NCBI GenBank assembly: GCA_000091205.1
Contig: AP006495.2
Direction: 5' to 3' (one strand)
DNA: 64,000 bases
Source: Cyanidioschyzon merolae
Taxonomy: Eukaryota
Positions 2,767 to 59,865 of this stretch are shown here, piece by piece (positions within the stretch are counted from its first letter, which is position 1; every line of letters begins with the position of its first letter). Both the position numbers and the translations under genes were made by a program. Under the pieces are notes generated by a model, which had not been told where the DNA came from, made no database searches, and saw only the letters and a program-made list of their open reading frames with translations.

Positions 2767-3106
2767 GTCAGCAGCCGACGCTGCGACGAGCTGCCCTGTA
2801 CCCGGAAGCGCTCCGCTGAGGCCGCTCCGCTGGCCAGCGCTGCCGTTGCCGTGGCCCTGCGGATCCACCGGAGCGGAGCGTTGCCGACGCAGTCGTCGAG
2901 GCTGTCTCGTGTCGGTTGTTGTCGTTACGGGACCGGGGAGTGCTCTAGTCTGTAAGAGGTGTTCGGAGGGCAACAATTGCAATTCTGCAGTAGATCGGGA
3001 ACGGTGCTCAGGGCAGAGCGCAAGAGGGTGCTTTTCCATAGAGGAGCAGTGAACGCCGCAGCCGCAGCTATTCGGCGAGTGGCTGGCAACGCAGTGCTCT
3101 GGGTCT

Positions 3107-3152
3107 CACGTGTGTGTGTGTGTGTGTGTGTGTTTGTGTGTGTGTTTGTGTC
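3107..3152. repeat. (GT)n microsatellite of about 45 bp with two TTT interruptions
   Basis: gtgtgtgtgtgtgtgtgtgtgtgtttgtgtgtgtgtttgtgtccgtg, read directly. Lies in the spacer between the divergent TIP41-like and RlmI-like genes. Confidence 0.9.
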
Positions 3153-3426
3153 CGTGAACGTTGACATTCTTCTTCGCATAATATTACTGCCGTCGCTGCG
3201 TAGTCATTTGCTGGCCAGTGGACAGAGAGTGACGAGTGCTTCGTTTCGTGGCTGTCTACGACAACGTTCTTGTTGCAGTCTGACTGCGTAGCAGCTTACG
3301 TACCGGAATCGTGCTCCGAACTGCACGCTGTGCCGTGGCTTGCTTGTAATGGAATACGAGGACTAGATCTATAGACAGGTTTGCACTGCAGATCAGAAGA
3401 CACTGCGAGTTTCTGAACGCAAGCCT

Positions 3427-9700: not shown

Positions 9701-11770
9701 TTCGAATCACGTGGATGATCGATAAGAAAAACAGCGCCTGCGCACACACACACGCACCTCGGCGAAGCGTTAAGGTATGGATATGGTGCAGCGGTCGCGA
9801 TCGCAGCGTTCCCGTTCGAATCAACGGAAGGAGGCCACGATATTTTGCGCTCCTGGATTCGCATCCCGAAGCTGATCGTTTTTCCACTGAATTCTATGAC
9901 ACATCCCGTACGTGAACTTGAAAGCTTTCTCGCGGTGTATAGCAGGCAACCGAAATCAATATGCAATGTTTTGTATAGATTGTCGATGAATTGCCTGTAG
10001 GATATGTCCTGTACTGAACAGTGCGCGGAGGACTGCATTCCTCCTGAAGGTCTGCTATACCACAGCACTCTGATGATTCAGGAACACTGGACGGAAAGAA
10101 GCAGATACGTTCATCGCCAAAAACTGGTATTGATAAAGTGTGCCTGACGTCTATGGTAGAACACGACACTTGATCGCATTACGGAAAGCAGAAGCTACGA
10201 CAGTAGCCACCACATGTGTGGCTGTTTCTCAACAGTTTGTTCGTGCGGACCTGAAATCACTGGGATGTAAACACAAAACCAGAGTTCTAGTTCACGAACG
10301 GCCATCCTTCACCGAAATGGCACCTACAGCGTGCCTGGAACGTCGCGACCGGTATGACGCACAAAGACGACGGCTTGTTTTGCACCTCGGTGATACCTCC
10401 GCCCGAAGAACCGGTCGAAGCGTGTGTGCGTATTCGCGGAGACGGGAGCCCGTTATATGTACGATCGATCCCGAAGGGAGCTCGGAAACCACTTTGTCGA
10501 ATCATTGAAGACTTTTCTTTCGACTTCTGGCGACGTCCTTCTTTCGTACAATATCGCAGTTAAACATTCGCTTTGGGTTCCAGCTTTTGCTGATGTTATC
10601 AGGGTAGAGTTGCTCTTCATTCCTCTGTACGCTCCGTAGATCAACCAAAATGAAACTGTCTTTTGTAATGTGAAATGTAATGAACGCCACGCTGGATTTT
10701 TTCTTTAACAAAATTTTTACATGGACCATGGATCCTGGATTGCGGGATGGATCGCAGCATTCGGGAAAGTGTCCACATGCAGCAACCGATGTTCCAGCTC
10801 CATAACCCATACCTCTCCTCGGATATACTGGTCGTTGCATACGCTCGATCGTGCGCCAAGCCTGCCGTGAGCGCCCGCGGCCCGTATAGCAATATTCGAC
10901 AGCGTGTCGTCCTGAAATGCGCTCTGGCTACCTCCCTGGTCACCGCGGGCATCAGCGAGCGTCGGACGTTTCGAGCTCTACCCGTGGACCCCGTATCAGT
11001 TCGTCTGTACATCGAAGCAGAACCCACACCAGATTATTCAGTTATTATGCAGGTGCCCTAAAAAGCACTCCAAGGCTGTCCTGTCTCGGTTTGATTCCAG
11101 CGGTAGAGCGTCCAGAGCTGGAGCAGGCGCCAGCGATAGACTCGGAACCCAGAACTTCGAATCACACTACACGAGCCGCTGTTCAAGAGGGCTTGTCTGA
11201 GTAAGGATTGATGGAACCTTGGCAAGTTTACTGAGGAACGAAAGCCTGTTTGGCGGCTATGAGCGGTGTTTTGCGCGCGACGGGCGCATCCACGGAATCC
11301 AACGGGAAGCAGCGATCCCTCTACGTAGAGGACGAACCGAGAAGTCGCTGTCCGTTCCGCGCGCCGATCCCAAATCGGACCCTGTGCCAGCGCCGTCGTA
11401 GTGCCCGCGAAATGCGCAACACCGCAAACTCCTTGTGAAACCGTTCATCGGAAGGCTGTAGGTGACAAGGCTCGTGTGAGACCTTACCTGGCGCTTAGAT
11501 AGTGCGAGAACCTCTCTGCCCGCGGGCCGTGTTCGCAAGCTGCTTTCAAGGTCGCAGGCGCGTGCGCAGCTGGTACACACCGCTTTCCGCGGAACGCATC
11601 ACGCTCTCGCGCACGCTGCGTCACGGCGAAGTGCGGCAACGAATAAGGCGAAGGGCGTTGCTCTCAGCGCACGCCCTGCCTTGCTTTCGAGGCAAAATAC
11701 TGGAGATAGTTCTGAAGTTGTGGCTTTAGAAGAAAAATCTTCGCCGGGGCTGCACTCGCTTCCTAAATAT

Positions 11771-21562: not shown

Positions 21563-23415
21563 TCGCCGCGCTCTCCTGGACACCATCCAGCAGAGCGCTT
21601 CGCCGAGCGGCCTCGCGGTACGTACGGGAATCGACCTGTTGTCCAGCGTCATTGAGGGCGTCGCGTTTTTGTCTACCGTTTTGCTGGCGCGTCTGTACGC
21701 GGGTGTCGATGCTGAACCTATCCCTAATTTTGACGAGGGCAGCGTACACCGCAGCGGCTTTTGATAGGAGAGGTGGTGATAGCGAAATCGGGACGCATGG
21801 GTAACACGCTCTCTCATGTGTGACGCATGCTCATTCCGGAGCGAGACTGGTGGATGAAAGGCAGTTCCAATGCATAGACGTGTCGCACATTCTCTCTTGC
21901 CTGTCGTGTGTGAGCGTTGTGGACCGGAGAGCGCGCGGCGACGGGTGCCTCACATGAACATACATACACTGGAGCGCATCGACGCATACATGCAGGTACA
22001 CAAGCAAGCATCCTAGATGGAGTTGGCATTTGTTGACAGTATCCGGCTCCGAACTAACGAATGCTAGACTGGTTGTATGGTCGCGCGGGGTGCACCAATC
22101 CGAAAGCACCATTGTGAGGTTGTGTGGCGCTGCAAGAGCCTTCGCGTAATGCGCGCAGCAGACCGGCACTCGCAACATGGTGAACATCTGCCCCGTGCCT
22201 AGAGGTGCATCTTGCAGCGGCTCTTCGCGAAAAAAGAATGCGTGTATTCGGTTGTCTAGGTACAAGGGATCCATACGGTCTTGAACCCTTTGCTTTAGGA
22301 TCTCTTGCTACGCATACGCTCGATCACTTGAAGCAATCGACATCGGGGTGTTTCACATGGAGCTCATGAAATGGATCGAGGTTACGCAGTATGCCATCAA
22401 AGAGACTCAATCGGTTCGGTCAGCTGAAATTTTTCAGCCGCTCGCGAGCATTGACGAGTCTGATGCAGAACATAGATACGAGGCGCACGCTTCGCCATGG
22501 AAAGAAAACAACTCTGCTCGCAGACTGTTTGATCTCTGTACATTAGAAGTAAACTGGAGCTTCCCTGTGCACCTGGGGAGATCGGCTCCGTGCGTCGTCT
22601 GCACAGTAATCGACAAATATCCAGAGCATTGGATAACATGTTATCGACTCTCGAACGACACAATCTAGAGACTCGCTTTCGTATAGATATGTAGATACGC
22701 ACTATGGCAGTGAAACGATCAAGTCCCGCGATAACAGCGTAAATGAATACCCGCCTGCAGACGCCTCCCAGCCTTTTTTGACCAGCGGCTTCTTATCGGT
22801 TCGCGTTTCTCCTTGGACATTTCGATCCTGGGAGTTTGCCCAAGAAAATAGATCGCGTCAGCTCTTCGGATCTCATCTGCAACATCATACATCATCTCAT
22901 ATAGCTGGCGATGTTGAAGTCTGTATTCACGAGATCCGCGCGTTTATTGCCTCTGGTTGAACGCACCATTGCAAGGATTCCTCTAATTCTTGCGCTCTGT
23001 GCTACGCCAGTATCATCATTGTCCCACTGAGCAAACGCCTTCTCTCGCGTATCGCCCTTCATATCGCTCGCCTCCTTCCTCTTCGTCACTCGCTCTTCTT
23101 CGCTCGCTGGTCGGCGAGAACTGGATTTTGCATTGTTTGTTTCTGTCAGGGAGCGACGTCTGCCTCCAAGATCCCTGTCTTTCATCTTCATACCTCCCCC
23201 TTGGATTTTCTATTTCTTCACAAGAACGCACTCGGAACACATTTGCTATGCACTGCGATAAAGCATTTGGTTACACGCATCTGCCTATGGAACACAATTC
23301 AGGTGAAACACTTGAACACACCCAGGTGCACTGCCGGCACGCAACTACGCTGAAAGCGCACGTGGAGCTGCAGTCGACTTTCACTGGACCGAAGCTCCCT
23401 GGCGAGCCAACAAGC

Positions 23416-24828
23416 ATGCAGGGAACTTGTTCAGTAGCTACAGAACGTTACGGCTTCGTCGCACCGAACCAGTTGCTTCAGCAGAACAAGCGCTGGCGAA
23501 CGCAGGCTCTTCGGCGAGCAGGCGTCTGGGACGTTCCCGAGGCCGTTGTTTCACTGAGAACGTTTCGGGTTGCTCGGAACGCGGGCAGTGGGCGCGTGCC
23601 CCGGGCCGGCTTCATACGTCGAGTGCTGGCACTCTCTGTGCGACACGCTCGGGAAGGGCAAACGCTTGACCCCAGCGCTGCGCCACGGTCCTCTCTAGAG
23701 TCGGGGACCTGGTTCAAGCTTATTTGCGGAGCTTCGTTCAACGAGGTGACAGAGATTGCTCCGCTCACGAGAGACTATGCGCTAGCAGGTGCTGATTGCG
23801 TAGACTGCGCGGCCGAGCCAGCCGTTGTTCAAGCAGTCCTGGACGGACTAGACGAGGCGGAGCGTCGGTGGCGGTGGACCCTCACCAGTGACTCGTCTTG
23901 CGCCCGTCCGGATCGATTGACGAAGAGCTTCGCACGTCCATGGATCATGGTGTCAATTACCGACGATGAGATGGAACCGCACTTTCGAAAAGCGCGTGTG
24001 CACGTCGACGCGCACGCACCTTGCTGGCAATGCCCTGCTCCGTGTGCTCAACTTTGTCCAGCGGACGCCCTCACGTTGCCAGCGACGGCGAAAAACGTGA
24101 ACCAATTCCAAATATTCGGCATTTCGAGCACCCGATGTTATGGTTGTGGGCGCTGCATCCCCGCCTGTCCGTATCATTTGATTGAGACGCACTCGAGCAA
24201 GCAGACCCCACAGCAAGTGATGGCACTCGTGCGCAATTATCCCATCGATGCAGTCGAGGTTCACACGCGTGATCCGCTTAGCGAGTCGTTTGCTGCCCTC
24301 TGGTACAGCGAAATCGGGCGCACCCTGCGAGCGACGATGAAACTCATCGCGATTAGCATGCCGGAGCCCAATGACTGGAGTGTTTTCGAGTACATTGCGC
24401 GGCTCGTGTACGGGGCGCACGTCGACGAGTCGGGAACTGTGCAGGAGGCACCAGCGACGCCACCGAGTACGCCCATTCTTCTGTGGCAGTGTGATGGTAA
24501 GCCTATGACCGGTGATCTGGGTGCACCTGCCACCACTCGGGCGACCGTGCGCTATGCCACCAGCTTAGCGGAATACTTTCGAAGGAATCCGCACTTGCTT
24601 GCCGCACGGGGATTCATTCAGTGTGCTGGCGGTACCAATGCCCATACGATTCCGCTCCTTGAGGGCGTGGACGGGGTCCACGGGGTAGCTTACGGTGGCT
24701 ACGCGCGTCGACTCGTTGCAACCGGCGGCTATGAGGCTGCGCAACGGTTGGTACAGCAGGTGAAAACGCGCTTGGTATCTCCGAAAGCTGCCAATCGAGA
24801 AGCTGTGCAACCCGAAACGAGTCTGTAA
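23416..24828 (+). CDS. LdpA-like 4Fe-4S dicluster protein (cyanobacterial circadian-input LdpA family architecture) with an N-terminal transit-peptide-like extension
   Basis: Ferredoxin-type cluster motifs: CWQCPAPCAQLCPADA and CYGCGRCIPACPY. N-terminal domain: WFKLICGASFNEV...YALAGADCVDCAAEPAVVQAV. Blocks RPWIMVSITDDEMEPHFRKA, IDAVEVHT, LLWQCDGKPMTGDLG and QCAGGTNAHT are recalled from memory as characteristic of LdpA and were not checked against a database. The track ORF starts at 22990 with TTG. Internal ATGs are at about 23248 and 23416. The 90 aa upstream of the domain are Arg/Ser/Ala-rich and presequence-like. Confidence 0.55.
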   Translation: MQGTCSVATERYGFVAPNQLLQQNKRWRTQALRRAGVWDVPEAVVSLRTFRVARNAGSGRVPRAGFIRRVLALSVRHAREGQTLDPSAAPRSSLESGTWFKLICGASFNEVTEIAPLTRDYALAGADCVDCAAEPAVVQAVLDGLDEAERRWRWTLTSDSSCARPDRLTKSFARPWIMVSITDDEMEPHFRKARVHVDAHAPCWQCPAPCAQLCPADALTLPATAKNVNQFQIFGISSTRCYGCGRCIPACPYHLIETHSSKQTPQQVMALVRNYPIDAVEVHTRDPLSESFAALWYSEIGRTLRATMKLIAISMPEPNDWSVFEYIARLVYGAHVDESGTVQEAPATPPSTPILLWQCDGKPMTGDLGAPATTRATVRYATSLAEYFRRNPHLLAARGFIQCAGGTNAHTIPLLEGVDGVHGVAYGGYARRLVATGGYEAAQRLVQQVKTRLVSPKAANREAVQPETSL

Positions 24829-31649: not shown

Positions 31650-32090
31650 TTCCCTCTTGCTCCGTATTCAACAGCCTAATGATGTTGATAGCAGTGTTAG
31701 AGATCTGATTGCGCTGTCTCGGGCTATTACCGACGCAGTTCCTGTAGAAAGAGAAGTTGCGATAAACGCTTCGGTAGCCATTTGCCATCTTCTTTGAAGA
31801 CAGCCTTGATGCGCCCATCGCAGCGGTGACACTAGGCTGTAGTCATATGTTGCCGTCTGTTCAACATGGTCCATCCTACGAAGGCATCCCTGTGGCGAGT
31901 GAATGCTCGCTTCCTCGCTCGGTACATGCCCTCTACGTATACAGAAGGTTAACCTCAATGCCTTCTTCCGTTTCCAATCCCGGGGCCGTACACTGCGCCC
32001 TGGGGCTCCTCACGGACGAACGCTTCGGCGATTAGCTTGTCCCCTGTACGAGCAAGCGCATGGTGTTCCATTCGATACGGGATTTGTGAA
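31650..32090. repeat. Dispersed repeat family, copy A (about 440 bp)
   Basis: About 80% nucleotide identity over about 440 bp to 37010..37455 in the same orientation. An example shared stretch is atgatgtt.a.agcag.gttagagatc.ga.tgcgctg.ctcgggct...cgacgcagttc ... tacgagcaagcgcatg.tgttccattcgat. The overlapping ORFs on both strands look alike only because of this DNA identity. Confidence 0.8.
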
Positions 32091-33163
32091 ACGCGATGTT
32101 GCTCATAATTAACGAACTGCCGGGAGGAAAATCCAGCCTGGAGACCGACTCACGAAATTTTTCGTCCATCCACGCTCGCTTCGTTCAAAGCGATAACGCA
32201 ATCTCCACCGACGACGATCGCTTCGATACCTCGAGTCCAAGAGTGCTTGCCATAAAAAGAGAGCAGACCGCAGCCTTTCGGAGGATATCCGGTAAGACGA
32301 ATGATGCTGCACTGGAATCCCATTTTCGTGACGGCCACAAAGAACGGAGGATTCGACTTTCGAACGGAATCGATATTTCGACTTGACGACTTCAATGAAT
32401 GTTCGCTATAGACTTGTGAAGAACCCGTCAAGACGAAGTCGATTTTTTTTCGTCATCAATCCAGCAGTACGAGTTGCTGTGCAAACGCGATGAAGCAGAA
32501 ACATCCAAAAAATGAAGAATCTGTGATTTGAACATCCTTCACATACGTAAAACTAGAATAGTCGAGGTTACTGCAGCGTCATTGATACAATGATAACGGT
32601 TGTTTTACGAACCCTTGTTGGAAAGCGTCGCGACTCCTCTTGATGACAGTGACGTAATGAGTTGCAGCGAAAACGCGTTGAAATAGCCTTTCCGATAAGA
32701 CGACCGATCATGCCAAACCGACGTATGATTCCATAAAACCCCTGTTGCTGTACTTCGAATATCGAAGCTGTAAATCCGAAAAAATTTGGAGAAAATGGCG
32801 CAAGGCAGGGACATAGCAACGCATCCAGTGTTCCGCTTCAACCTGACAGACGCGTAGCGCGCGCAGTACTGCGCAGCGTCTGGTGCACAGCAAGCGCAGG
32901 CGAAACGCACTGCGAATCCTTCGCTCCTGCTTGGTGTATGTGTATCGTGCTTCGCTCGAAAGGCAGTTTGCCCAGAACCCGCTCTTTAGGGCAAAGTTTG
33001 GCAGACTGCCGTGTAGAAGCGTCCACAGCGTACGCAAGCGTGCAGCGTTGGGTTCCTTTTTGACTCAATAGAACAAGTGGTGGAGAGAAGGACTGGGCAC
33101 AGCGAACGTCGTTTCGAGCAAGCGTCTCCGCTCTGCACGAGCGCGGTTTGTCCTGGGCGGACC

Positions 33164-37009: not shown

Positions 37010-37455
37010 GGCCTGTCCATCCCGCTCCGTTTCCAAAAGTCGAATGATGTTCACAGCAGCGTTAGAGATCCGACTGCGCTGCCTCGGGCTGTTGTCGACG
37101 CAGTTCACGCAGAAGCCAGATTTGCGATCAACGCTTCGATAGCCATTGGTCATCTTCTGTGTGTACACAGCCTTGATGCATCCTTCGCAGCGGTGATAGT
37201 TGGCTCTAGTCAGATGTTCCTATAAATGCAGCATCGTCCATCTTAAGAAAGGCCTCCCTGTGGCGTGCGAACGCTCGCCTTCTCGCTCGGTACATGCCCT
37301 CTTCGCGTACAGAAGGCTAACCTGCCTGCATTCCTACGTGTTTGCGCCCGGCGCTGCATCCCACTGTAAGGGGCTTCTGCAGGGCGTATCCCTTTGACGA
37401 GTACGCTGTCCGCTGCACGAGCAAGCGCATGCTGTTCCATTCGATGCTGCATGAT
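37010..37455. repeat. Dispersed repeat family, copy B (about 440 bp)
   Basis: Partner of 31650..32090. See that entry. Confidence 0.8.
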
Positions 37456-39748: not shown

Positions 39749-41050
39749 CTAATGCATCATCGCAGCAGCTTCTTGCATCACCAGTCTGGAGCCGGTGCCG
39801 CTGCCCACCACCACGGTGGAGGGGCCAGAGCTCGCCATCGGAGAGGCGACTGGACCCACTACCGTCGTTCCATCTGTAGAGGTCGTCGATCCACTCGAGG
39901 AAGATCCGTATGAGCTGCCGCTGCTGCCGGTAACGACGATGCCACCGCTGCTGCCGCTGCTGCCGCTGCTGCCGCTGCTGCCGGTAACGACGATGCCACC
40001 GCTGCTGCTGCTGCTGCTGCTGCTGCTTCCTGAAGACGGCTCCAGCTCAGTTTGAACCGGCTGCTGCTGGCCAGAGTTCTGGCTGTAAGGGTTGAACGGC
40101 TGCACCTGCTGCTTCGGGTAGTACTTCTTGTAATAACTCTTGTTGTAGTTGAACGGCCCAAAGACAGCAGTTGCGTTCCATCCGCTGGGAAAGTTGACCA
40201 CCGGATTCTTGTAGTAGCACCATGGAATATCCTGAGTCTGATACTTTTGCTGGAGGTACGGAGGCAGCAATATGGGATCGAAGCAGCAGTTACGCTCCAA
40301 GCACTGTTGCTCAGAAATGCCTGGGAAACCGCAGTTCTGGCGCTCCCGATAGGTGACGTTGCAGGTCATGAGCGGTTGATAGCAGAAGCCGTAGCTGTTG
40401 CCGAAGAAATTCACCTTCTGCTGCTTCTGCAGAGACTGACTGCTCGGGATAGAATCCTCATATGTCAGGTTCGGGTTCTGCTCCCAGCAGCAGCCCTGTG
40501 CCTCGCAATCCAGCTGGTTCATGTTATTCCAGCCGGAGTAGCATGGAACCTTGTAGTCGCCAACATTACAGCTCACATTGGGAAGTTGCTGCTGCGGTGG
40601 AGGCGAGTAGCCCACTGGAGCATAGCACCAGGGCCCGACCTCCGTCGGTGGAAGGGGATTCCAGCAGCCACCCTGCTGCAGACACTCTGCCGGAGTGATC
40701 TGCGGATAGCCGATCGCGACACGGTCGGCTGCGGAAATATTACAGATGGAGGTCGGCTCGTACGAGACGCAAACACCGTCTCCATTGTAGTTGAATCCCC
40801 AGTTCACCTGAGTCTGCCAGCAGCACTGGTAGTCGAAGCACTTCTGCTGGTCATTGCCAGCGTCACCACAGAGATAGATCGAGCAGGTTGTTCCAATATA
40901 GGTCGAGTTCAGGGAGCTCCACCGCTCCAGGTTGGAGTCCACCAGCATGGACGGCGCTGCGTTGACGCCGCCCATGGCGGCCACCATACACAGCAGCGCG
41001 AGCACTGCTGCTGCTGCCGCCGCTGAGATGAAAGAGAATAACTTACGCAT
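39749..41050 (-). CDS. Secreted multi-trefoil (P-domain) protein with a Ser/Gly/Thr-rich mucin-like C-terminal tail
   Basis: Real ATG. N-terminal signal peptide MRKLFSFISAAAAAAVLALLCMVAAMGGVNA. One module matches the PROSITE trefoil pattern exactly: RQNCGFPGISEQQCLERNCCFD, that is [KRH]-x2-C-x-[FY]-x3-[ST]-x3-C-x4-C-C-[FW]. Three further degenerate modules: KCFDYQCCWQT, GYPQITPAECLQQGGCWNP, CYSGWNNMNQLDCEAQGCCWEQ. The C-terminus is SSGSSSSSSSSSGGIVVTGSSGSSGSSGSSGGIVVTGSSGSS..., encoded by a (GCT/GCC)n microsatellite. Confidence 0.75.
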   Translation of the reverse strand: MRKLFSFISAAAAAAVLALLCMVAAMGGVNAAPSMLVDSNLERWSSLNSTYIGTTCSIYLCGDAGNDQQKCFDYQCCWQTQVNWGFNYNGDGVCVSYEPTSICNISAADRVAIGYPQITPAECLQQGGCWNPLPPTEVGPWCYAPVGYSPPPQQQLPNVSCNVGDYKVPCYSGWNNMNQLDCEAQGCCWEQNPNLTYEDSIPSSQSLQKQQKVNFFGNSYGFCYQPLMTCNVTYRERQNCGFPGISEQQCLERNCCFDPILLPPYLQQKYQTQDIPWCYYKNPVVNFPSGWNATAVFGPFNYNKSYYKKYYPKQQVQPFNPYSQNSGQQQPVQTELEPSSGSSSSSSSSSGGIVVTGSSGSSGSSGSSGGIVVTGSSGSSYGSSSSGSTTSTDGTTVVGPVASPMASSGPSTVVVGSGTGSRLVMQEAAAMMH

Positions 41051-41974
41051 GGGTAATTGATACGTTCTGTTACGAGATGTGCACTAGGTTTCCCTGTTGA
41101 ATGCAGAGGTTTCCCAAAACGATGAAACGAGCGCTTGCTTGATTCTTTGCAGCGTCACTTGCAGTTCACGATGTGCTGGTATGCGCGAGAGCGAACGACG
41201 AGCACTTCACGTACTGAGTCACAGACACTGAAAAAGAGGCGCTTCTCAAGAGATATGATTCGGCTTGCAGTCGATCGAGCAGATGAAACCGGTCGTTTTC
41301 GATCTGGATTCAGCTTCGCTCGTAAGTGCACACGAACACTCTCGACGACGAGAAAAAACAACACACGAATGCGGAAATCCCCGCGCGCTAAGTTGAGAAC
41401 GAATAATGAAAACGATTAGCACCCTTCGAAATGGAGTGCGCGCACGACGTGTATATGGTTCCAACGGTACCCAGATACACACACACACACCGATATATCG
41501 TCACGGGAGATCTGCGATCGAGAAGAGCACAGAGCCCAAGCGCTAAATGACGACCTGCTTAGAACGCTACACGCTACAACGAAATGCTAGATGCAGCAGC
41601 TGTGGAGAGCAGAGCGTGCACAGTTCCACACACACACTCACTCACGCGATGTTTAACGACAACAACAATACCTTCTCCGCATGAATTGCTGCAACATAGA
41701 CGGATTCATGCCGTGCAAGCGGTAGCATCACGAATGGGGCCGGCCGGTCCAAAACGTATCCATAGCAGGGCCGGCGTCACCAGTTTGGCCGCGTTGCAGT
41801 GCCGGCTGCGGCCCTGCGTCGGATCCAGCGCTGGGCCAAATGGCGTTACGCGCGATCGCGCGGGTGCGATGCGCAGCGTGCGATCGATCGCGAATGGCAT
41901 GCGCAGCGCCACCCGCGACTGGTGCGCGCAGCGCTGGAGCGGGATGATCATCTTTCACCTGAATGGTGTTCCAG

Positions 41975-42380
41975 TGCAGGTGCGTGTTATCAAATGCTTT
42001 TTCGGCGGTTTACGGCAATGCGTTCCAAGTGCGTTCGTTTTGGAGACATAGATAATCCAAGGGAAAGGTATGGACAGAAAATTCGGGGATCCTGGGTAAT
42101 GTCATCGCCAGTTGCGGGAGAGAAACAAAAAAATCCTGTTCTCCCTAAACACCGAGTGAAGAAGAGCAAGTGGCGAAGAGCTAGAAGAGGCAGAACGGGG
42201 ATCGAAGGATGCGGAAAGGATTTTTCGCCCTCTTTTGGCAGACGGCTACACCAGGCACCCAGTATCCCCGAATTTTCTGTCCATACCTTTCCCTCGGGTT
42301 TCTCTAGTTCTTCGCAGGAACGCACTTCGAATGCGTCTGCCGTAAACCGCGAAAAAGCATTTCATAACGCGCACCTCGGA
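41975..42380. repeat. Foldback / long inverted-repeat element: two 125 bp arms (about 85-90% complementary) around a 150 bp spacer
   Basis: Left arm 41975-42100: ggtgcgtgttatcaaatgctttttcggcggtttacggcaatgcgttccaagtgcgttcg...gggaaaggtatggacagaaaattcggggatcctgggt. Reverse complement of right arm 42251-42375: ggtgcgcgttatgaaatgctttttcgcggtttacggcagacgcattcgaagtgcgttcc...gggaaaggtatggacagaaaattcggggatactgggt. Only about 25 bp inside the arms diverges. Confidence 0.85.
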
Positions 42381-43342
42381 TGAAGCACAGTGCAGATAAA
42401 AGAGTATAACGACGCAGGTACCTGGCCTGCTGCACGAGTGCATCCCGTAGCGGGCAGATGCTGAACCCGTCGCAAGAACGCGACATGTGCCCGCTCGGCA
42501 TGCAGAGCAGAGACGATGCGTGCGCGGGTATCTGAATGCCACCGCGCGCACGGCGGCCCAGCGCAACGAACAGGCCTGCGAACATCATTTTCGTGGATCG
42601 ATGTACGTTCCATAAAGACGTGCTATGCTCGTGAGCACTGGCAGTCTACAATGCGTACTCAAAACCTTCACGATGAAAATCCCGACAAAGTTCCCGTGTT
42701 TGCAATACCGAATCGACGGATTGTTGTCATTGGCATCGATGAACCTGAATGGACCCCATCATAGAGGTGTCCGCTTCAGGGCGTGGAATTCAAGTCTCGT
42801 TTGCATGACACATGTTCTCGTTCGCTGTTCACGACGAATTACTGGGGAATTCGGGACCATGTGGCCTCAAGAACAATATCTCATTCGGAAGACGCCAGCT
42901 TTAGACGTATCCGCGGGTCAAGGTACGCAGTTGATTATCCTCTCACCATAAATGCCGGTCCGCTCGCACATGCTTCCTCGCATGCGCAGGTGTAGTTACA
43001 TGCCTTGGCACCGCTCGGTGCATATGCCAATTGGTTGTACAGCTGTCCTCGTGGCATGCACCTGCATCCCATGATGAGCGCTCGCTTCCCCGGCCAGAGA
43101 AGCGACCATGTGACTGGCATCTAAAACATCTGACCCTGAGTGCCCTATCTGGAGAATCGTGTCAACGCGCTGCAGAGGTGCGCGAAAACGCGGAGCGATC
43201 GCTGCGAATCGGGTCCTCGCAACAAACCACGTATTCCTCAGGCTCAGTCGTAGCGCTCTCTCGGGACGGAGTGTGCAACTTGCCAAGGTTGTGCGGGCAA
43301 GATGATTTCAAATGACTCGCACTGAGCGCCACTTTTTCCGAA

Positions 43343-43915
43343 ATGAACGGGGACGACGACGCGAAGCGCTCAGGGAAGCGGTTACCGGATCAACCCGCAA
43401 AGACACAGCGTACCAAAGGTCCCGTCTCCTTCCCTTCCACAGTCTCGCTTGCTAGTTTATGTGAAGAGGGCGCTACTGCGTCATCAAATCTGGACCTGCT
43501 TGCGTCCTGCTCGAGCGTTCAGGGCTCAGAGGACTGCGACTGCGAAGGACACCAGCCGGAGTCAGAACGCCGCTTGAAGAGGCCTCGCCAGGCTCCTTGG
43601 GCAGCGGAGCCAGCGAACCAGCGCCGGCCACCGTTCGATCACGGCAACTCTGAATCTATACCACCAGCCGGTGTGCAGTCGCAGGGGACTTCGGCAAGCA
43701 ACGGAACTGATTCCTCGGAGCGCAAGTCGACGGAAGCAACCTGGAGTAGGCAGTCCGTCGACTGCAGCACCGCGGAGAAGCTCGCTGGAAACCTGTGTGC
43801 AAACCAAGTGAGCGCTGAGCGCAGCGGCCAATTCTATACGAAAGTGAATGAGCTTCTCCATGATTTACACAAGGAAAGAGTCAGCCGACAATGCCGCTCG
43901 CCCCATGAATCCTAA
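43343..43915 (+). CDS. Hypothetical low-complexity Ser/Glu/Cys-rich protein (190 aa)
   Basis: Real ATG. The ORF lacks repeats at DNA level but is compositionally biased. No recognisable domain. Could be spurious. Confidence 0.3.
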   Translation: MNGDDDAKRSGKRLPDQPAKTQRTKGPVSFPSTVSLASLCEEGATASSNLDLLASCSSVQGSEDCDCEGHQPESERRLKRPRQAPWAAEPANQRRPPFDHGNSESIPPAGVQSQGTSASNGTDSSERKSTEATWSRQSVDCSTAEKLAGNLCANQVSAERSGQFYTKVNELLHDLHKERVSRQCRSPHES

Positions 43916-44320: not shown

Positions 44321-45841
44321 CTAGGGTGCGCGGATGTGCACCAGGCCAGCTCGTATGAGCATGCGAACTTGGTCTAAAGTGCACCCACTCGCCTCCATGA
44401 GTTCACGAGTTCTTCGCCGATTCGACAGTGCCCCACCTGACGAAGCGTCAGCGACCATCTGCTTTGCAAAGGCGACTTGTGCCGCGCTCAGCGACACCGG
44501 CCTATAATCGCGATCGAGGACAAGTTCAGACGGGGCGCCGTACGCGCATTCGCTCCATTCGGGAATGCTGGCAGCGATTTCATCATCCGTGGGCTCTGTC
44601 GAGGGAAACGGGTCGCGCGCTAGGAAGAACTCAAAGTGCGTGATGCGCTCGGGATCGAGAAGTTCCACCAATCTCCACCGCTCCGCGTCGCTGAGCCCCT
44701 GAACAAGCTGACGTACCTCGGGATCGTTCCCCAGCAAGTGGTCTAGATCAAAGTTTCGAGCATTCGACCAGCCCAGGAATCGCAGACCGCTTTTCTCCGC
44801 CAACGCCAAGACGGACGGTACATCGAAGTCGTGTTCCAATGGATGGACATACATATCCGCGAATGTGGCATCGGAGCGGTTGTCGTGTGCCCATCGCTCA
44901 TTCTCTCGTTTCTTTAAGCGATTCTCGTCCGGAAGCGCCCTAAAGAGTGCCCGACCGAGGGCGACTCCCTTTTTATAATCCCCTTTGCTGCCGGTAGCCT
45001 CTTGGATCAGGGCAATCGCTGCCTGCATCCGACGAATTTCCCACCGACCTGCCTCGGCGTAGACGAAAACATGCAGGATGCCACCGGGGGCTAGTTTTCC
45101 CGCCAGCATCTGCAGCGCTCTGGCTGGGTCTGGTGTATGATGAATCACGCCGACACAATTGATCATGTCAAATCGACCGCTTATTTCTCCGTCCTCGAGA
45201 TCGAAAATGGACTTGCAGTACAGGCTGGTGCGATGCCGGGCATCGGGGACCGACAGCTCGAGGCGCTCACGTGCAGTCGCCAGGGCTGTCGGCGACAGGT
45301 CAAAAGCAACCACTTCTGCCTGCGGGTTCAAGTGAACCAGATACTCCGTGCCGCAGCCGGTTCCACAGCCGGCGTCCAGAATACGAACTTTCGTTGTCGC
45401 TGGAACGCGACCCTTGGCACAAAAAGCGTACGCCGTGGGGTAGTGCCAGCGCCAGTTATAGCCTGGTGGAGCCCCGCTCGTAGGCGGATCCGGCGGAAAC
45501 GGGTATGCGTTGTACAGCTTCTGGACAGCCTCTGTAGCGGAATCTAGCTTACGACCCGACTCGCGCTGCTCGAGCGAGGCTACAAGTGTCCAGACTCGAC
45601 TTGGGCGTTGGTGTACTCTGAAAGAAAGGCCTCGTCCGCCGTGAAGCAGCCTACGTAGTCTCGGCTGTGCGAGCGTTTTACCTGCAACAAAACTAGAAAC
45701 GCTCAAGAACGCAGTTGCCTGAGTCTTTTTCGTACCGGTATCCATCCAGGTTGAAACTCTCGCCTGTTGCGGCACAAAACAGCAGGCGTGGTTATCGGAA
45801 CAGAAGGATTTCACGACTAGAGGGTAAATGGATGCTGCCAT
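44321..45841 (-). CDS. Class I SAM-dependent methyltransferase (Methyltransf_12/25-like, bacterial/cyanobacterial type) with an N-terminal presequence-like extension
   Basis: Motif I: VRILDAGCGTGCGTEYL. Post-I acidic: EVVAFDLSPTAL. Motif II/III: FDMINCVGVIHHTPDP...LAPGGILHV. The N-terminal 90 aa are S/T/R-rich. There is an ATG at 45841, but the first 15 codons overlap, in another frame, the tail of the Fanzor-like remnant. An alternative start is MDTGTKK about 32 codons downstream. Confidence 0.75.
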   Translation of the reverse strand: MAASIYPLVVKSFCSDNHACCFVPQQARVSTWMDTGTKKTQATAFLSVSSFVAGKTLAQPRLRRLLHGGRGLSFRVHQRPSRVWTLVASLEQRESGRKLDSATEAVQKLYNAYPFPPDPPTSGAPPGYNWRWHYPTAYAFCAKGRVPATTKVRILDAGCGTGCGTEYLVHLNPQAEVVAFDLSPTALATARERLELSVPDARHRTSLYCKSIFDLEDGEISGRFDMINCVGVIHHTPDPARALQMLAGKLAPGGILHVFVYAEAGRWEIRRMQAAIALIQEATGSKGDYKKGVALGRALFRALPDENRLKKRENERWAHDNRSDATFADMYVHPLEHDFDVPSVLALAEKSGLRFLGWSNARNFDLDHLLGNDPEVRQLVQGLSDAERWRLVELLDPERITHFEFFLARDPFPSTEPTDDEIAASIPEWSECAYGAPSELVLDRDYRPVSLSAAQVAFAKQMVADASSGGALSNRRRTRELMEASGCTLDQVRMLIRAGLVHIRAP

Positions 45842-47552
45842 GCTGACGCCTCACGGTCTTTTTGGGCCGGCCACCTGCTATCGACTTCATCTTCTTCCCG
45901 TAAAATTCCACACTGAGAGGCTGCTCCACAAAGTTGGCTCTCGTCAGCTCTTTGGGTCTCTTCTCCATTACGACACATCTCCGTATAGTGATGGCGGCAT
46001 GAAAGTCTCGGGTCACAGCCTCCATGCGTTTCTTGCCGCCGCTGGTTGTACTCACCAGTGCAGGGTGTCCTCGAACTCATGCCCTCTGTGGCATTTTCTG
46101 TTCCGCCAGCGCTCCGTACTTTTCGATATCCGCAGGGCTCCTGTGAAACTTTTCCATCTCGAACCTCTGAAGCGTACACCTCAGTTCGTGGTGCACATAC
46201 GATGTTCGGAACTCTTATGTATGTATTGTGAAAAAACGGTGTGCATACTCTTTGTACGCTCTTGTCGACGGAGCTGGTGCACATCCTTTTTTATGCGTCA
46301 AGCGCCCTGTTCCGAGTGCTATCACGAGTCGTTGACTCTTGTCCTCCTTGAGGGCGCTCAACTTATTGAACAAGTTGGCGAATGCACGCTGCTTCCCACA
46401 GTCCAAGTCGATACGCTGACGAGCGCACCGGCGCTTGGTGTACTCTTTCCACATCTCCTCGGAATGAGCAACGCGAATTTTCACGGACTCCTGAAAAGCT
46501 TGAAAGCTCGCACCTCGGCTCGTCACATTGCGGAACTCCTTCTTCCTGACATCGTACTCCAGACTGATCTCCCTCGTGATGCCGTAAAGGGCTCTGGAGC
46601 CAATTGTCACCAAGTGCGACTTGATGTTGCGTATGGGAACGACATTGAAGCGCTTCTCTAGTAGGGAAGCGTTCCGTTTCTCCGACTCTTCATTTGCTTC
46701 CACATCCTGCTCCATTGCGGCCTTGCGATCGAGTTGCCGGTTCAGGACCACAAAATAGCACAGCATCAGAGGATAACTTTTCTTAATCTCTGATACCTTT
46801 TCTGCTGGGTTGACCAGCCCCAAGACCGCCCGATGCTCTTAAATAGCCACACGGATCGCAGAAGCTTCATTCGTGCTTCTGCGTGATGTCTTCTTGTCGA
46901 CGAACTCGATCCCCTGTTCGTGCTGGGGATCGTTCATGATGCCATTGATGATGGCCCATGTTCCTTTGCGAGAGAGGCCTGGGTAGAGTGGAAGAATGGA
47001 GCGTATCATGAAACGTTTGAGGTTCACGATCATGTGGTTCTTCAGGCCCATGAGGTACTTGATTGCCCCTCATCCGTAAACGCACAAGTTACCCTTGTAT
47101 CGAGTACTGTTGAAGCGGAATTCGGGGTGATATTCGTGGCGGGCGTGCACTCGCTCATTTCTCCGCGAGGTTTCCCACGTGCTAACCTTCAGGTGGCTGA
47201 TGAAGCTCTAGTCGTAAAATTCTTCCGGAACCTCGACTGTTTTGATGGCCGTCACGTCGCGATACATCTCCCTCGCCAAATGCATTAGTCCTGACGACGC
47301 CTATGTAATACTCTTGGAGTACGAATCGACATGGTTTCTGATAGCGTCTCGCAGCTTTTGCTTGTACGGATTTTTGATATATTTAAGAAGACAGGCTTTC
47401 ACCACAGTCTCGTTGTACTGTGGTCTTTCTTGCAGCCATTGACGTCGGACCTCCTGCCTTCGCTTCTTCGTCTTCTCCAGTCCCTCTCTGCTTGGGACTG
47501 TTTTTCGTTTTTTTCCGCTAGCCGGCGACACGAATCCTCCAGGATCCTCCAC
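45795..47552 (-). mobile_element. Decayed Fanzor/TnpB-like (OrfB_IS605-family RuvC) nuclease gene: NLS-bearing N-terminus, C-terminal RuvC-III motif, several frameshifts and stops (pseudogene)
   Basis: A chain of ORFs in three minus-strand frames: 47301..47552 (MEDPGGFVSPASGKKRKTVPSREGLEKTKKRRQEV..., basic NLS-like), 46839..47051, 46215..46823, 45817..46284 and 45792..46055. The last reads GGKKRMEAVTRDFHAAITIRR, which is the D-x-N-A-A-x-N-I RuvC-III hallmark of TnpB/Fanzor. It is preceded by a degenerate Cys-pair region (EPCGYRKV...TPCTGEY). The C-terminal 200 nt are about 75% identical at DNA level to 59265..59465. An in-frame TGA lies 5 codons upstream of the 46839 ORF. Confidence 0.5.
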
Positions 47553-48663
47553 TTGCTTCTAGATAAGTATCGTTTTTTATTTTTGAAAACGAACCCACTT
47601 CGAACGCTTCTCCTATAAACCACGAAAAAGCACTCGAATACACTAATGTGAGGGTTGGCACCCTACCGAACTGAAAGACTATACTTTGCTACAACTCGAA
47701 CGCTAGTACATCTTGTACAGCAGAACACCACGCTAATGATCAGGATCGCGTTTTCCTCCATAGGCGGCATTTGCGTCATCTCTCATGCCTGCCAGATATC
47801 GACGTGCATATATCGACGACGCTATAGAAAGAAGGAAAAGAAAAGAACCACGTACTAGCAACTCAATTAGAAATTCTTTCTTTCTGTGCGGTATACATTA
47901 GAAAGGGGAGCAAGCTTTCCGAACACTCGAACGTTTATCTTCTAGGCGGAAGGTTTCTCGAGCCTGACGAGTCTGCCGCGCTCGTGTTTCATGCTCCTCC
48001 TGGTGGCGGGTGCTGTACTGAGCTCCGAGCAGCTGTCCGTAACGCAGGTTATTCTGGGACTTGGAGCCGGTAAGCGGCATCTGGATATCGCCCTAGTCGC
48101 GGTGACCTCTTTGTATATCGCTTCGCGCTGTCGCAGGCCGTACGCTTTTCTACACAGTTTGCTGCCTCCGAGAATGATAGTGCATCCCGAATCCGTATTG
48201 AATGAAGCACGACTCGAGCCTTGACTCTCGGTGGTGTGGCAACGCCTTCTGTCTCTATGCTGCATCCGCACCTGCGGTATGGGTGCCATTGCGGTTGCTC
48301 ACGGCAGGCTCGTCGGTCGATACAACGTTTGAAACGACCACTATATCCGAGAAGAAGTATGACTCATGGAACTTGGTAGCAGGGTGTGTTACAAGCGATG
48401 CTTCATGGCGCTAATGTCAAGCGTACACTCGGCAAAAAACACTGGCCTGTCAACGTTCTATCAATGAAAAATAAAAATCATTCGGTTGTTCGACCTGCGC
48501 AATTCTGCCCGTCTACTCGCGCCCAGCACCAAGCAGCAGCGCACACCACACGCACCTGCTTCGAGCGAGACTTTTACCAGGCCAAAACACTGGTCCGTTC
48601 TCTATGGCGAGTTTATTGGAGCGTGAAGAATTAGAGTGATAGAGACGTGGTACCCGAGCTCAG

Positions 48664-53740: not shown

Positions 53741-54061
53741 TCAGTAGTCGAGCGATGGTGATGGCTGCGTTTCAGTGATAGCTTCTGAATTCTGGCTGCA
53801 GTCGACGCATATCATGCACAGACGCAGGTCGCGATCTGGGCTGCGCTCGCCGTTTCCCTGTTCCTTTTTGTACATAGACTCTGTGCACTCTCCGCAGCAA
53901 TGACACTTGACTCTGGTCGGGTGTTCCCATATGTCCACTACACCTCTTATTCCTCTGAGGGCCGCTCTGTGACGCGTGAACGCTTGCCTAATCGCTCGGT
54001 ACCTGTCCGTGTCGGGTACAGAAGTCTCCCCTTGGTGCCCGCCTCCGTTTCCGTGCCCCAT
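53741..54061 (-). CDS. Candidate small zinc-ribbon protein (106 aa) with two CxxC-type clusters
   Basis: HPTRVKCHCCGECTESMY ... LCMICVDCSQN gives a two Cys-pair arrangement about 30 aa apart. The N-terminus is Gly/His-rich. Low confidence: GC-rich DNA generates many ORFs of this size. Confidence 0.25.
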   Translation of the reverse strand: MGHGNGGGHQGETSVPDTDRYRAIRQAFTRHRAALRGIRGVVDIWEHPTRVKCHCCGECTESMYKKEQGNGERSPDRDLRLCMICVDCSQNSEAITETQPSPSLDY

Positions 54062-55971
54062 GCCCTGCCCTACTGCAGTCAGGAGCCTCCTCTGAGAGAT
54101 TATCGTCTCGAGTACGCTGACCGCTGCGCTCGTAAGCGTACGTTGTTCCTTTCGATAGTGGATTTATAGAATGCGTTGCTGTCCATGATGAACAGGTACC
54201 GCACGGAAAATCCAGGTTATAGTACAAGCCGCGAATCTTCGATTCGTCTGCACGCGCTCCAAACGAATCCGAAACACAGTCCCCGCTGAAATCGATCGCA
54301 GTGGTGACTCATGACCGAGTACAAGACTCTACGCCATGCAAACACAGAGGTCGCGAGCCTCCGGCATCGAATTCCATGAGGAGTATCAAGCTGCGCTCGA
54401 ATACCGTCTCGTCGACGGCCACAGAGAGAGGAGGACATGCTCTTCGAACGAAATCTAATATTGGCATGGAGGAACATAGTGCATTCTGGGCATGATTTTG
54501 TGAAGATGTCGTCACGGGTCACGATCGCGTTGCATTTTCCCTGTCAACCCAGCAGGGAGCATTGCTGCGCCTATGAGTTGCCTCGGATCGGAAAAGTGGA
54601 AGACTTTAGAGATGGCTGATTTGAGCATGCTACACCTAAAGAAAGACAGAGCGTGGACGCTCGTACACAAGAATCGATTGATCATATTGGTTATTTAATA
54701 GACGCTTTTTCGATGGCGTCACAGATCATCCTGATGACGGTCATGCAACGAATTCCAGCGTCAAAGATTCCAAACCGCCACTAGGAAATGGTGCCCGAGA
54801 ACCCCAAATCTACGTGCCATACGATCGCACCTCCTCCTGCATGTCGAATGTCGAGGATCTACATCTAAAAAACACGCGGAAAGAAAATCGAAAAGTAGGA
54901 ATAGAGCAATCAGCCAAGTGTTTCCGTTCAGCCTAATACCGGTGTAGGGAACCGACGAGTCGGCACCGTTCAGCGCGCGAAAGTTTTCCTGGCTGCGGCT
55001 CGGTTCCCTGCGAGCCCTCTCAAGTCCACGACACTAAGAAACCTTCTTGCCATCATTTCCAAAAGCGACGTTGAATGCAGAATGTCTCGCGGGCTCGGGT
55101 AGTTCGCTTGGCGGTGCGTTGTGGTTCCAGGCAGGGCGAGCGCTGCAGCACCGCTCGAGCGCCCTCCACCAGTCCATGGACGATGCCGTGGGAAGCGCGC
55201 TCTGCGCTCAGGCCGCGTCCCCGTCGCCGAGTTCCTCCAGCGTATTGGCCTGCTCACCCAGCCATGGACCCGCTTGTACAGCCGTTCAGCGTCCGGATGG
55301 ACAAGGAGACTCACGGCAGTGGGCCGCATATAATGGACCGTACGAGCCAGCATCCGCAGAGGCAATGTGTACCCATTCTGTCGCTGTGCGGCGCCTGCGT
55401 GTTCGCTGGATCCATCAAGCCCTTACTCCATAGATCATCAATGCTCTAGGGCTCTTGGAACATAACGGCATCTGCGGAAGCGTCCAGCTTCATGTCCTGT
55501 TTACCAGCCGCACTCGCGTACGCACGAGAAGCGTATTCCATTCTGCTATCTGGCAGCATTGGAAAAAACGCAGTGCGGCCATAAAGTGTTTGTGCGTCGC
55601 ATAGCCCCCAGACGCGCCGACATTGGATATCACGCACCGACTCCGTTCCGTTAAGGTGCAATCGAATACTGAAGAGGTGACGTTTGCGCCTCCTGCCGAA
55701 AACCTGCCGAGTACAAGCAAACGGAATCGTTTGGTATGCAGAAGCCATCGGAGGCTCCGCTGAAGATTCAGGCGCCTGGCCAGCGCTCGCTCATCACCGT
55801 CATGTCTTCGTATGCCTCTGGACGAGCGGATACGTCGCGAGATTCCTCGACGACGTTGCAACGGTGAAAAAAATGCGATCAAGCGACGCTTCAGCTGGCC
55901 GAGACGCGGTGCCTGCTGCATTAATGATCCTGCTCGCACTCGTGTACTGCGCTGTGCCGTACTCTGCCTGA

Positions 55972-57735: not shown

Positions 57736-58745
57736 TAGCGCGTAGTTCCGGGCGATCCCGCCATGGTACAACCGGGGGCGTAAACCCGCTCGCACTGCGA
57801 CGACTCACGCCGGTGTTCTCTCCAAGGTAAAGGCCCTGGGAGCGCCCTCGTCCCGAAGACCAACTGGACCCGCACCGCTGAACGCACAAGTCGCCGCCTG
57901 AAGAAGGTACCTTGAGGGGCTGCTTTCGAATATCGAGACTGCTTTTGGAATGCGGTGCACAGCAGCTCTATCCAAAGCGGCAACTTTCCACAGTGCCAGC
58001 AGTTCAAGTGTATGTACAGCGCCGTCGACTAAAACAGGCACGGAACGGCGAACGCCCACAGTTCAAATACCGCTTCGGAAATGCAGCTTGGAATCAATTT
58101 TTCGTTGACGAAACGATTACGTTGATCTTGGATCCCAGACTGAACGATGAATTTTGGTATCCTGGTATGCGTTCATCGAGCTATACCCTACCTTCAAGTT
58201 CCATTACTTATACGTTGTTCCGGATGTACCGACTGTTTTGTACGTTCCACTGTGTACCAAGCCCGCCGTGAGCACCCCCAACAGCGATTATACTGCTGGT
58301 GCATATGTATGACGGAGACAGAGCGGCTTTGCCATTCCACTGCGGGCGTCGGATGGAGGAATGCTATGCCTGACACGGAATCAGGGCTAATGGTCATTCT
58401 GGGAACCTGAAATATGCGCAGAGAAACTTACTGCCTGCGGCAGCGCCAAGCGATATGCTAGGAGATAACTGCAACATGGGCGATGCCCAGACGCAGCCTA
58501 CCCGCTCCTAGTCCCAGAATAACCCGCGTTGCGGACGAGTCGCTCAGGTCTCATTACAACATCCGCCACTGGAGGGGACGCGAAGCACGGGCCTGGTAGA
58601 CAAGTTCGGCTCGCGGGACCTTCCGCCTGGGAGATAAGCTTTCGAGAATACGGAAAATTTTTCCCTTTCAAAGGTTACCATGAAGGTGGCACCAGAATGC
58701 TATCGAGTTGCTCGTTAATGGATATTTTCTGTTCTTTTTACACAT

Positions 58746-59019: not shown

Positions 59020-59264
59020 CACACCGGACCATATGTCGTCTCTCTTCCGCGGGTCCTTCTCCCTCTGGGAAGGTCCCTACCTCAGGGCATTAGCACGTGC
59101 GTTCATTTAAAGAAATAAAAAATCCAAGCGATGAGCTGCGCTGTACACTGCAGAGGGTCGAGATGCAGAAGGGCCGGCAGAGCGCTCAGTGGATTGAAAA
59201 GTACGCAACGCTGACAGAGCAGAAACTGGCGCAAAGGGCATGAGTTTTAGCAATCCTTGCAATA

Positions 59265-59465
59265 ATGCGTTCTAGTAGAGGCAAGAAGCGCATGGAGTTC
59301 GTGAACCGAACCTTGAACGCCGCCATCAATATCAGACGATTTGCGATGCTGGGGAGAGAAAGCCCAGGAGTTGACGCGAGCCAACGTTGTGGAGCAGCCT
59401 CTCAGGTTCAAAGTATACAAGGAAAATCTATAACCAGTAACATGCGGCCGGTCAAAAAAGGCTAG
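59265..59465 (+). pseudogene. Fanzor/TnpB-like C-terminal fragment (RuvC-III region); second copy of the element at 45795..47552
   Basis: SSRGKKRMEFVNRTLNAAINIRRFAMLGRE carries the NAAINI motif, with catalytic D replaced by L. About 75% nucleotide identity to the minus-strand segment about 45840-46075, including ...agccaac[g/t]ttgtggagcagcctctcag.... Lies 250 bp downstream of the Tc1-like remnant on the same strand. Confidence 0.5.
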
Positions 59466-59865
59466 GAGGCGTCTGTGAGTGGTTTCCAGGGTACCCTCTC
59501 GAGCCGATGCCCTCTGCGATATGGCAACGCCGACCTCTGTCCGTGCCATGACCGCACCGGCACTACAGGCGCTATTCCGGACATTCAGGCCATGCACTAC
59601 GCCCGAGGTAGAACGTCTGAAGCGGCCAGTATATCCGGGAAGGGTTAGAAGTTATGGAACTTGGGAGTAGAGCGCGCAATGATGGATGCTTCACTGTGCC
59701 CTGATATCGAGCGCCCAGTCGCAGAACGCTGGTCTAGGTCCAGGTTTCATGGAATTCAAGAATGCAACATTTCACGCCGACTCTGTCGGAAACCGCGCCC
59801 GCGCAATACCTCTTCGATAGCTTGTGGAGCTCGCTTCTGTATTGAAGCTGGGACACGCACTCGAA

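Follow-up and report, generated by a model that had tools for sequence, protein, structure and literature searches.

A palindromic locus in a 64-kb algal DNA window is probably a decaying relic of the CMe-1A Fanzor1 transposon family

What kind of element is the foldback structure at positions 41975-42380 of the window, that is, the whole 64-kb stretch of DNA analysed here? An earlier note had described it as a perfect hairpin with 125-bp arms and a 150-bp loop, and had proposed either a MITE or foldback transposon or a hairpin-RNA locus processed by Dicer. G+C content of the window is about 55%, and its ORFs are long and without interruption; one of them encodes LdpA, which is typically found in cyanobacteria and in eukaryotes with plastids. 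Among named organisms, the closest LdpA proteins are those of Cyanidiococcus yangmingshanensis (61% identity) and Cyanidium caldarium (51%); the corresponding values for the methyltransferase encoded to the right of the locus are 70% and 65%. Near-identical proteins and contigs turned up in JGI metagenomes only, and the alga was accordingly placed among uncultured red algae of the Cyanidiophyceae, apart from C. merolae strain 10D.

An inverted repeat is indeed present at this position (Table 1). Its arms of 147 nt each match at 81% of the columns of a gapped alignment, with 6 small gaps and a 159-nt spacer, so the hairpin is not a perfect one: the stem is mismatched or gapped at about 1 position in 5. 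The best-kept part found by BLAST (41978-42097/42257-42376, 84.4% over 122 columns) is close to the 125-bp arms first described, but pairing reaches further both ways. Inward of the main stem, weaker pairing continues to about 195 nt in the extended arm alignment, which implies that the true unpaired loop is only about 60 nt. The repeat search splits the stem into an 86-nt block at 71% and the innermost 44 nt, where complementarity reaches 93%; the longest perfect run is 31 nt. A more divergent patch at ~42037-42053/42301-42317 corresponds to the ~25-bp internal patch already noticed.

The inverted repeat is far beyond chance. Its alignment score was 143, whereas none of 271 other 462-nt windows taken from the 64 kb scored above 27, and it was the sole inverted repeat of at least 40 nt within 2 kb across the whole window. 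The predicted RNA fold of the locus had an energy of -238 kcal/mol compared with -132.6 ± 5.6 in shuffled sequences (z = -18.8), and the opposite strand gave z = -15.3, so that a long stem is predicted from either strand, as had been suggested. The palindrome did not extend into its flanks (flank score 23 vs a null mean of 19.5). No direct repeat or target-site duplication was visible flanking 41947/42408, although decay of this degree could have erased a duplication of 2-4 bp. Tandem Repeats Finder detected no tandem subrepeats inside 41947-42408; the only array (41852-41886) is outside the arms. The two ORFs called across the palindrome (41799..42383 + and 41990..42325 -) do exist as reading frames; neither matched Pfam and neither was called as a gene in six orthologous contigs. 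An Rfam scan of 41000-43500 at E <= 1 returned a chance-level match only, outside the locus.

Table 1 Features of the palindromic locus and related transposon copies in the window.
Feature	Position	Strand	Basis
Left unit of palindrome	41947..42218	+	nhmmer 41949-42209; pairwise alignment to CMe-1A covers 41953-42218, 66%
Right unit of palindrome	42221..42408	-	Inverted, shorter copy; nhmmer 42408-42222; pairwise alignment 68% identical
Left arm, clearly paired stem	41951..42097	.	121/150 columns pair with 42257-42403
Right arm, clearly paired stem	42257..42403	.	Gapped alignment, BLAST, repeat search
'Loop'	42098..42256	.	nhmmer alignments; extended arm alignment, 76% over 196 columns
Short non-autonomous derivative, 5' piece 23313-23094 and 3' piece 22997-22754	22721..23313	-	nhmmer; BLAST to foldback, 74%, and to short copies in L038, L040/L041 and L064
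CMe-1A-type Fanzor1 pseudogene including TE-N2-like 5' part	45835..48376	-	BLAST to consensus, 80.7% and 78.6%; protein 70%
Complete TE-N2_CMe-like copy, CMe-1A positions 1-636	58103..58737	+	BLAST, 78% over 640 nt
Isolated 3' fragment of Fanzor element	59126..59476	+	nhmmer E = 4e-55; BLAST to CMe-1A 2737-3083
TE-N2 fragments	10708-10878, 59498-59691		BLAST to CMe-1A

The arm sequence occurs again in the window. A self-search located it at 23079-23308 and at 47586-47643, the latter directly upstream of a long minus-strand frame running from 47552 to ~45795. The protein of this frame, a pseudogene, has 33 homologues, all from JGI metagenomes, and a scan of metagenome contigs gave 328 stretches encoding a relative. 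We fetched 80 of these loci, and the window together with 91 loci (~1.1 Mb; L-numbers below denote loci) formed the search space for palindromic copies. From the fetched loci, 33 full-length elements were combined into a nucleotide profile for an nhmmer search of the window. The profile matched the palindrome twice, at 41949-42209 (+, E = 5.2e-18) and 42408-42222 (-, E = 1.1e-16), both matches covering profile positions 269-520 on opposite strands.

The parent family has been published. The main-text passages and supplementary files of Bao and Jurka (2013, Mob DNA 4:12; PMC3627910) that deal with it describe CMe-1A as a Fanzor1 (eukaryotic TnpB-like) family of Cyanidioschyzon merolae with about 150 copies, each ~80% identical to a consensus of ~3.2 kb; they report no terminal inverted repeats (TIRs), give the target-site duplication as undetermined and the classification as unknown, and identify the first 635 bp as a second element, TE-N2_CMe. 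The consensus DNA (Additional file 2) and protein of CMe-1 were taken from these supplementary files. Against this consensus the arms gave BLAST E values of 1e-10 and 3e-11, and pairwise alignment assigned the left unit to positions 793-1045 and the right unit to 786-969. The Fanzor start codon is at consensus position 906, and the duplicated segment comprises ~120 nt upstream of the ATG, the ATG and the first codons. About 20 Fanzor codons are retained in the right unit and about 45 in the left unit, whose start-codon relic lies within GGAAAGGTATGGAC near 42073. In full-length copies the stretch upstream of Fanzor is well conserved, with a 'TATATAA' motif. The segment is internal to the 3169-bp consensus, the Fanzor module of the full-length element beginning near 640. 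Judged by these matches, both arms are copies of one CMe-1A segment, and the locus is a rearranged member of this published transposon family.

The two unit copies face each other (convergent), are unequal in length and abut within ~12 nt, with the last ~10 nt of the left unit assignable to either unit and no trace of a 3' piece. The 'loop' is not foreign DNA. Both units simply run on inward through it, pairing weakly, with more of the sequence coming from the left unit, and it consists of the A-rich, purine-rich start of the Fanzor ORF.

Two parts of the window pseudogene align with CMe-1A at 91-1949 (48376-46533, 80.7%) and 2400-3091 (46526-45835, 78.6%), and its protein is 70% identical to CMe-1p with residues 349-498 (150 aa) deleted. 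By this identity and the published classification, the parent protein is assigned to Fanzor1. The pseudogene (48376-45835) has 6 in-frame stops and no frameshift; by eye, the motifs 'DEFRTS' and 'RDFNAA' are present and 'GADPGN' (RuvC-I region) has been lost in the deletion. We also considered whether all six stops were C-to-T changes and rejected this, as on our own reading several face lysine or aspartate codons of the consensus protein. Homologues of the pseudogene protein had no match in Pfam, sequence searches of the PDB with this protein, by phmmer and by profile, returned no match, and an AlphaFold2 model from 33 close homologues had a pLDDT of 37.7, too low for a fold search. At its 3' end the pseudogene directly adjoins the methyltransferase ORF, whose ATG is at 45841, and four metagenome assemblies (L085-L088) break no more than ~90 nt from there.

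Copies of the family are 65-85% identical to each other, and end alignments of the full-length elements revealed no terminal inverted repeat. The copies in the window thus resemble CMe-1A as described in the published passages: they are old and diverged, have no TIRs and have no determinable target-site duplication. The palindrome differs from an ordinary CMe-1A copy in consisting of two inverted 5' fragments. The 64-kb window is generally rich in this pair of Fanzor1 and TE-N2 families.

The copy at 23 kb is a short element of ~590 bp, in which the 5' piece is joined to the last ~250 nt of the Fanzor gene and then a specific tail. The same 5'+3' architecture was found in L038, L040/L041 (twice), L042/L078 and L064 (twice), and these short elements evidently constitute a multi-copy, non-autonomous derivative family. 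Before the ATG, the arms and the short copies (23 kb, L038, L040) have in common an insertion, ATCCAAGGG, that is missing from the full-length consensus. The outer ends of the arms are the 5' boundary of the short copies (23313; L040/L041), at CMe-1A ~786-789; the L038 short copy was traced only from ~25 positions further in. This shared insertion and boundary place the palindrome units in the short subfamily. The idea that the short copies are retro-copies from a transcription start was set aside because of their specific, non-poly(A) 3' tail. The short derivative at 22721-23313 sits in a non-conserved 5' extension of the LdpA ORF (22990-24828), and the JGI start codon of a 99%-identical LdpA protein falls within it.

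Within this subfamily the arms are each other's closest relative, with 81% identity along the stem and 76% along 196 columns, whereas their identity to other copies does not exceed 73%. They alone share derived states such as GGTTTACGGCA, GGACAGAAAATTCGGGGAT and 'CTGGGT', which the other copies do not have. In our judgement the locus is quite probably a decaying palindromic transposon relic, for which a single inverted duplication of one short copy would be the most economical origin. One short copy would have inserted between the trefoil gene and the methyltransferase gene, and its 3' half would then have been replaced, in a single event, by an inverted copy of its own 5' half. The likeliest route would be snap-back or template-switch synthesis at a break in the purine-rich sequence with which the 5' piece ends on its inner side; this formation step is suggested by the geometry only, the junction at ~42203-42222 being too decayed to show microhomology.

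To place these events in time, we compared the window with six other JGI metagenome contigs that are 98-99.4% identical to it, giving a set of seven haplotypes (the window and six independently assembled contigs). All six carry the locus, with no indel. No empty-site allele was found among the seven haplotypes, and divergence from the related species is too great for an empty site to be defined there. The gene order around the methyltransferase and trefoil genes is kept in Cyanidiococcus yangmingshanensis (L089) and in a second species (L090/L091), and no inverted repeat or CMe-1A sequence was found in the methyltransferase-trefoil intervals of either. This absence from syntenic intervals despite a conserved non-coding block next to the locus indicates that the palindrome is lineage-specific. 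The duplication would thus have arisen in the lineage of the window alga later than its separation from Cyanidiococcus and long before divergence within the present population.

Variation among the haplotypes bears on what has happened since. Fourteen of the 22 SNPs in the surrounding 1 kb lie in the 462-nt locus, a density of 3.0% vs 1.5% in the flanks. Five of the nine arm SNPs break a pair, one makes a pair, one is neutral, two are in bulges and none is compensatory. This pattern points to neutral decay and not to a selected RNA stem, and both arms would have drifted neutrally to their present divergence of ~19-24%. The locus is now most likely functionless: it encodes nothing, gives no sign of having been moved in one piece and is not maintained as a hairpin RNA. 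All that is intrinsic to it is most likely that its DNA, or any transcript reading through it, can fold back.

The neighbourhood of the palindrome has features of its own. The protein encoded on the minus strand at 39749-41050 looks secreted and has three trefoil (P-type) domains plus a tail rich in Ser and Gly; Cyanidiococcus has kept both this gene and its place beside the methyltransferase gene. A non-coding block at 41574-41872 is 68-79% identical to L089 14136-14230 and L090 14195-14477. It is situated upstream of the trefoil gene, at a distance of ~500-800 nt, and is ~75 nt away from the palindrome; it has no Rfam match and may represent a promoter element or a small RNA gene not described before. 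The stretch 41852-41934, directly to the left of the palindrome, contains short GC-rich direct repeats, with three ~21-nt copies ('CGCG..TG..ATGCGCAGCG') and a 14-nt tandem unit; these repeats lie outside the transposon-derived sequence and are absent from the related species.

Could the locus instead be a mobile, non-autonomous element of the foldback or MITE type, in which two inverted left ends were moved as a unit by the machinery of the family? The proposal of such a transposon was right in that the arms are homologous to a dispersed transposon family, and like a MITE the locus is short, non-coding, derived from a larger element and situated between genes. Both of its outer ends coincide with the 5' boundary of other, well-preserved short copies, the short 5'+3' derivatives are clearly multi-copy, and a second palindromic derivative is known (L025/L026/L078, described below). 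Should the boundary at ~786 be a genuine transposon end, a structure having two left ends in inverted orientation might still be mobilisable. However, MITEs have short TIRs that copy the ends of an autonomous element, a target-site duplication and many copies, whereas this locus has 150-200-nt copies of internal sequence (786-969 of 3169 bp), no visible duplication and one known site. With internal arms and a family described as lacking TIRs in the published passages (PMC3627910), a TIR-dependent cut-and-paste process is not indicated. The arm sequence recurs elsewhere in the window, but a search of the window and 91 loci (~1.1 Mb) revealed no further pair of inverted 5' pieces. The same site is occupied in all seven haplotypes, and at 19-24% divergence of the arms any activity would be ancient.

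Nor does the locus fit the Drosophila foldback (FB) elements. These are multi-copy, have target-site duplications and have arms built of tandem subrepeats. The locus resembles them in its long inverted arms and short middle, but its arms have no tandem repeats and the structure was found once. We regard mobility as a unit as unlikely.

A further alternative is that the palindrome results from two independent insertions, a second short element or fragment having inserted in inverted orientation and deletions having left two facing 5' pieces. The maize 'double Ds' structures offer a parallel; they consist of complete elements and are active in chromosome breakage. As in 'double Ds', inverted copies or fragments are found at one site, arising from insertion or rearrangement and not encoded by the family, but the present locus keeps only heavily mutated 5' fragments. 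The family has inserted many times, the two units are unequal in length, and the left arm matches the 23-kb copy at 73%, hardly less than the 76% at which it matches the right arm over 196 columns, all of which would fit two insertions. Against this, the derived states named above are common to both arms and lacking elsewhere, and the arms are mutual best matches over the 147-nt stem. Moreover, the units have the same start position and abut with no 3' piece between them, so that two matching truncations would be needed. Two insertions are accordingly an improbable source, and a single inverted duplication is preferred.

The locus might also be an endogenous hairpin-RNA locus, whose transcribed stem is diced into small RNAs that silence Fanzor elements through their matching 5' ends. 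It shares with hpRNA and endo-siRNA loci an inverted duplication of transposon sequence, with a long though imperfect stem predicted from either strand and including the 31-bp perfect stretch, and arms that match the 5' end of a multi-copy transposon are a typical configuration of a silencing trigger. Such loci, however, need Dicer and Argonaute, both of which are reported missing in C. merolae and in Galdieria, of the same algal class (PMC11376382), a loss presumably shared by the alga of the window. The stem is 19-24% mismatched, and the arms are only 63-67% identical to full-length 5' regions in the available loci, too diverged for effective pairing. Selection on pairing left no trace among the nine arm SNPs of the seven haplotypes: those that break pairs are uncompensated, and SNPs are denser than in the flanks. 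The locus is also absent at the syntenic loci of related species. The suggested role as a Dicer substrate thus finds no support, and we consider it very improbable. Inverted chimeras are an artefact of some library and assembly methods, but a chimeric junction is effectively refuted here, as six other independently assembled contigs that differ by SNPs carry the same structure with no indel, and the arms differ at ~1 position in 5 where artefacts give identical arms.

The search for palindromic copies revealed another derivative, in which two 3' pieces are inverted (L025 5043-5654; the same locus is L026 3729-4340 and L078 13519-14130). Its arms of ~170-230 nt are ~71% complementary and are separated by a 92-134-nt spacer. 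It is the mirror image of the palindrome in the window, and its centre lies in the same part of the element, the purine-rich inner stretch of the 5' piece. Two cases make this suggestive at most; such structures may stem from a regular process and not from accident. That both palindromes are reciprocal by-products of a regular process in TIR-less Fanzor1 elements is a speculative and distinctly doubtful reading. If they were recurrent, a preferred double-strand break or a hairpin intermediate inside the element, repaired by snap-back synthesis, would be implied, which would be a clue to how CMe-1A-type elements are cut or copied.

The 3' ends of the family were examined as well. For TnpB and Fanzor, the omegaRNA is encoded at the transposon end where the nuclease gene has its 3' end, beside that gene end or in overlap with it (PMC10432273). 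The palindrome was rejected as an omegaRNA, since its arms represent the region upstream of and including the start codon and not the 3' end. A conserved region of ~110 nt spans the Fanzor stop codon (GGAGACGTCTTGTCTAGGGCG...CGCCACTACTGTACAC...CGTTCGACTTTCGAACGGCG) and has several possible hairpins (L021 12530-12640, L009 4460-4571; CMe-1A consensus 3092-3169); it is a candidate guide-RNA (omegaRNA) scaffold or right end. Clear covariation was discounted for the 3' end of full-length elements, RNAalifold giving -7.5 kcal/mol with a covariation term of ~0. In copies of the window lineage and in all short derivatives, a variant 3' tail of ~50 nt, TGGGTATTCATTTACCCTCTATTGTCGTGAAACGTTTTCGTTTCACTGA, replaces the published consensus 3' end (window 45770-45835, 22700-22754 and 59476-59530; L022, L025, L038, L040, L064 and L065), so that the family has 3' modules of two alternative kinds. 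In some short copies the 5' module, too, is of an alternative kind. The main-text passages and Additional files 1-3 of PMC3627910 make no mention of a short 5'+3' subfamily or a variant 3' tail.

The palindrome is of little importance in itself, although its assignment removes a candidate MITE or small-RNA locus and explains two spurious ORFs. The CMe-1A Fanzor1 family was known from C. merolae; in uncultured relatives from hot springs it is abundant and has diversified, with short 5'+3' derivatives, 3' ends of two kinds and rearrangements into palindromes. Dozens of full-length copies can be used to define the termini, the guide RNA and the mechanism of transposition, and because C. merolae is genetically tractable, experimental tests are feasible. 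Other sequences in the window (53896-54317, 32592-32862, 32038-32136 and 37398-37445) are 67-88% identical to unrelated parts of the locus L001, which points to further dispersed repeat families in these algae.
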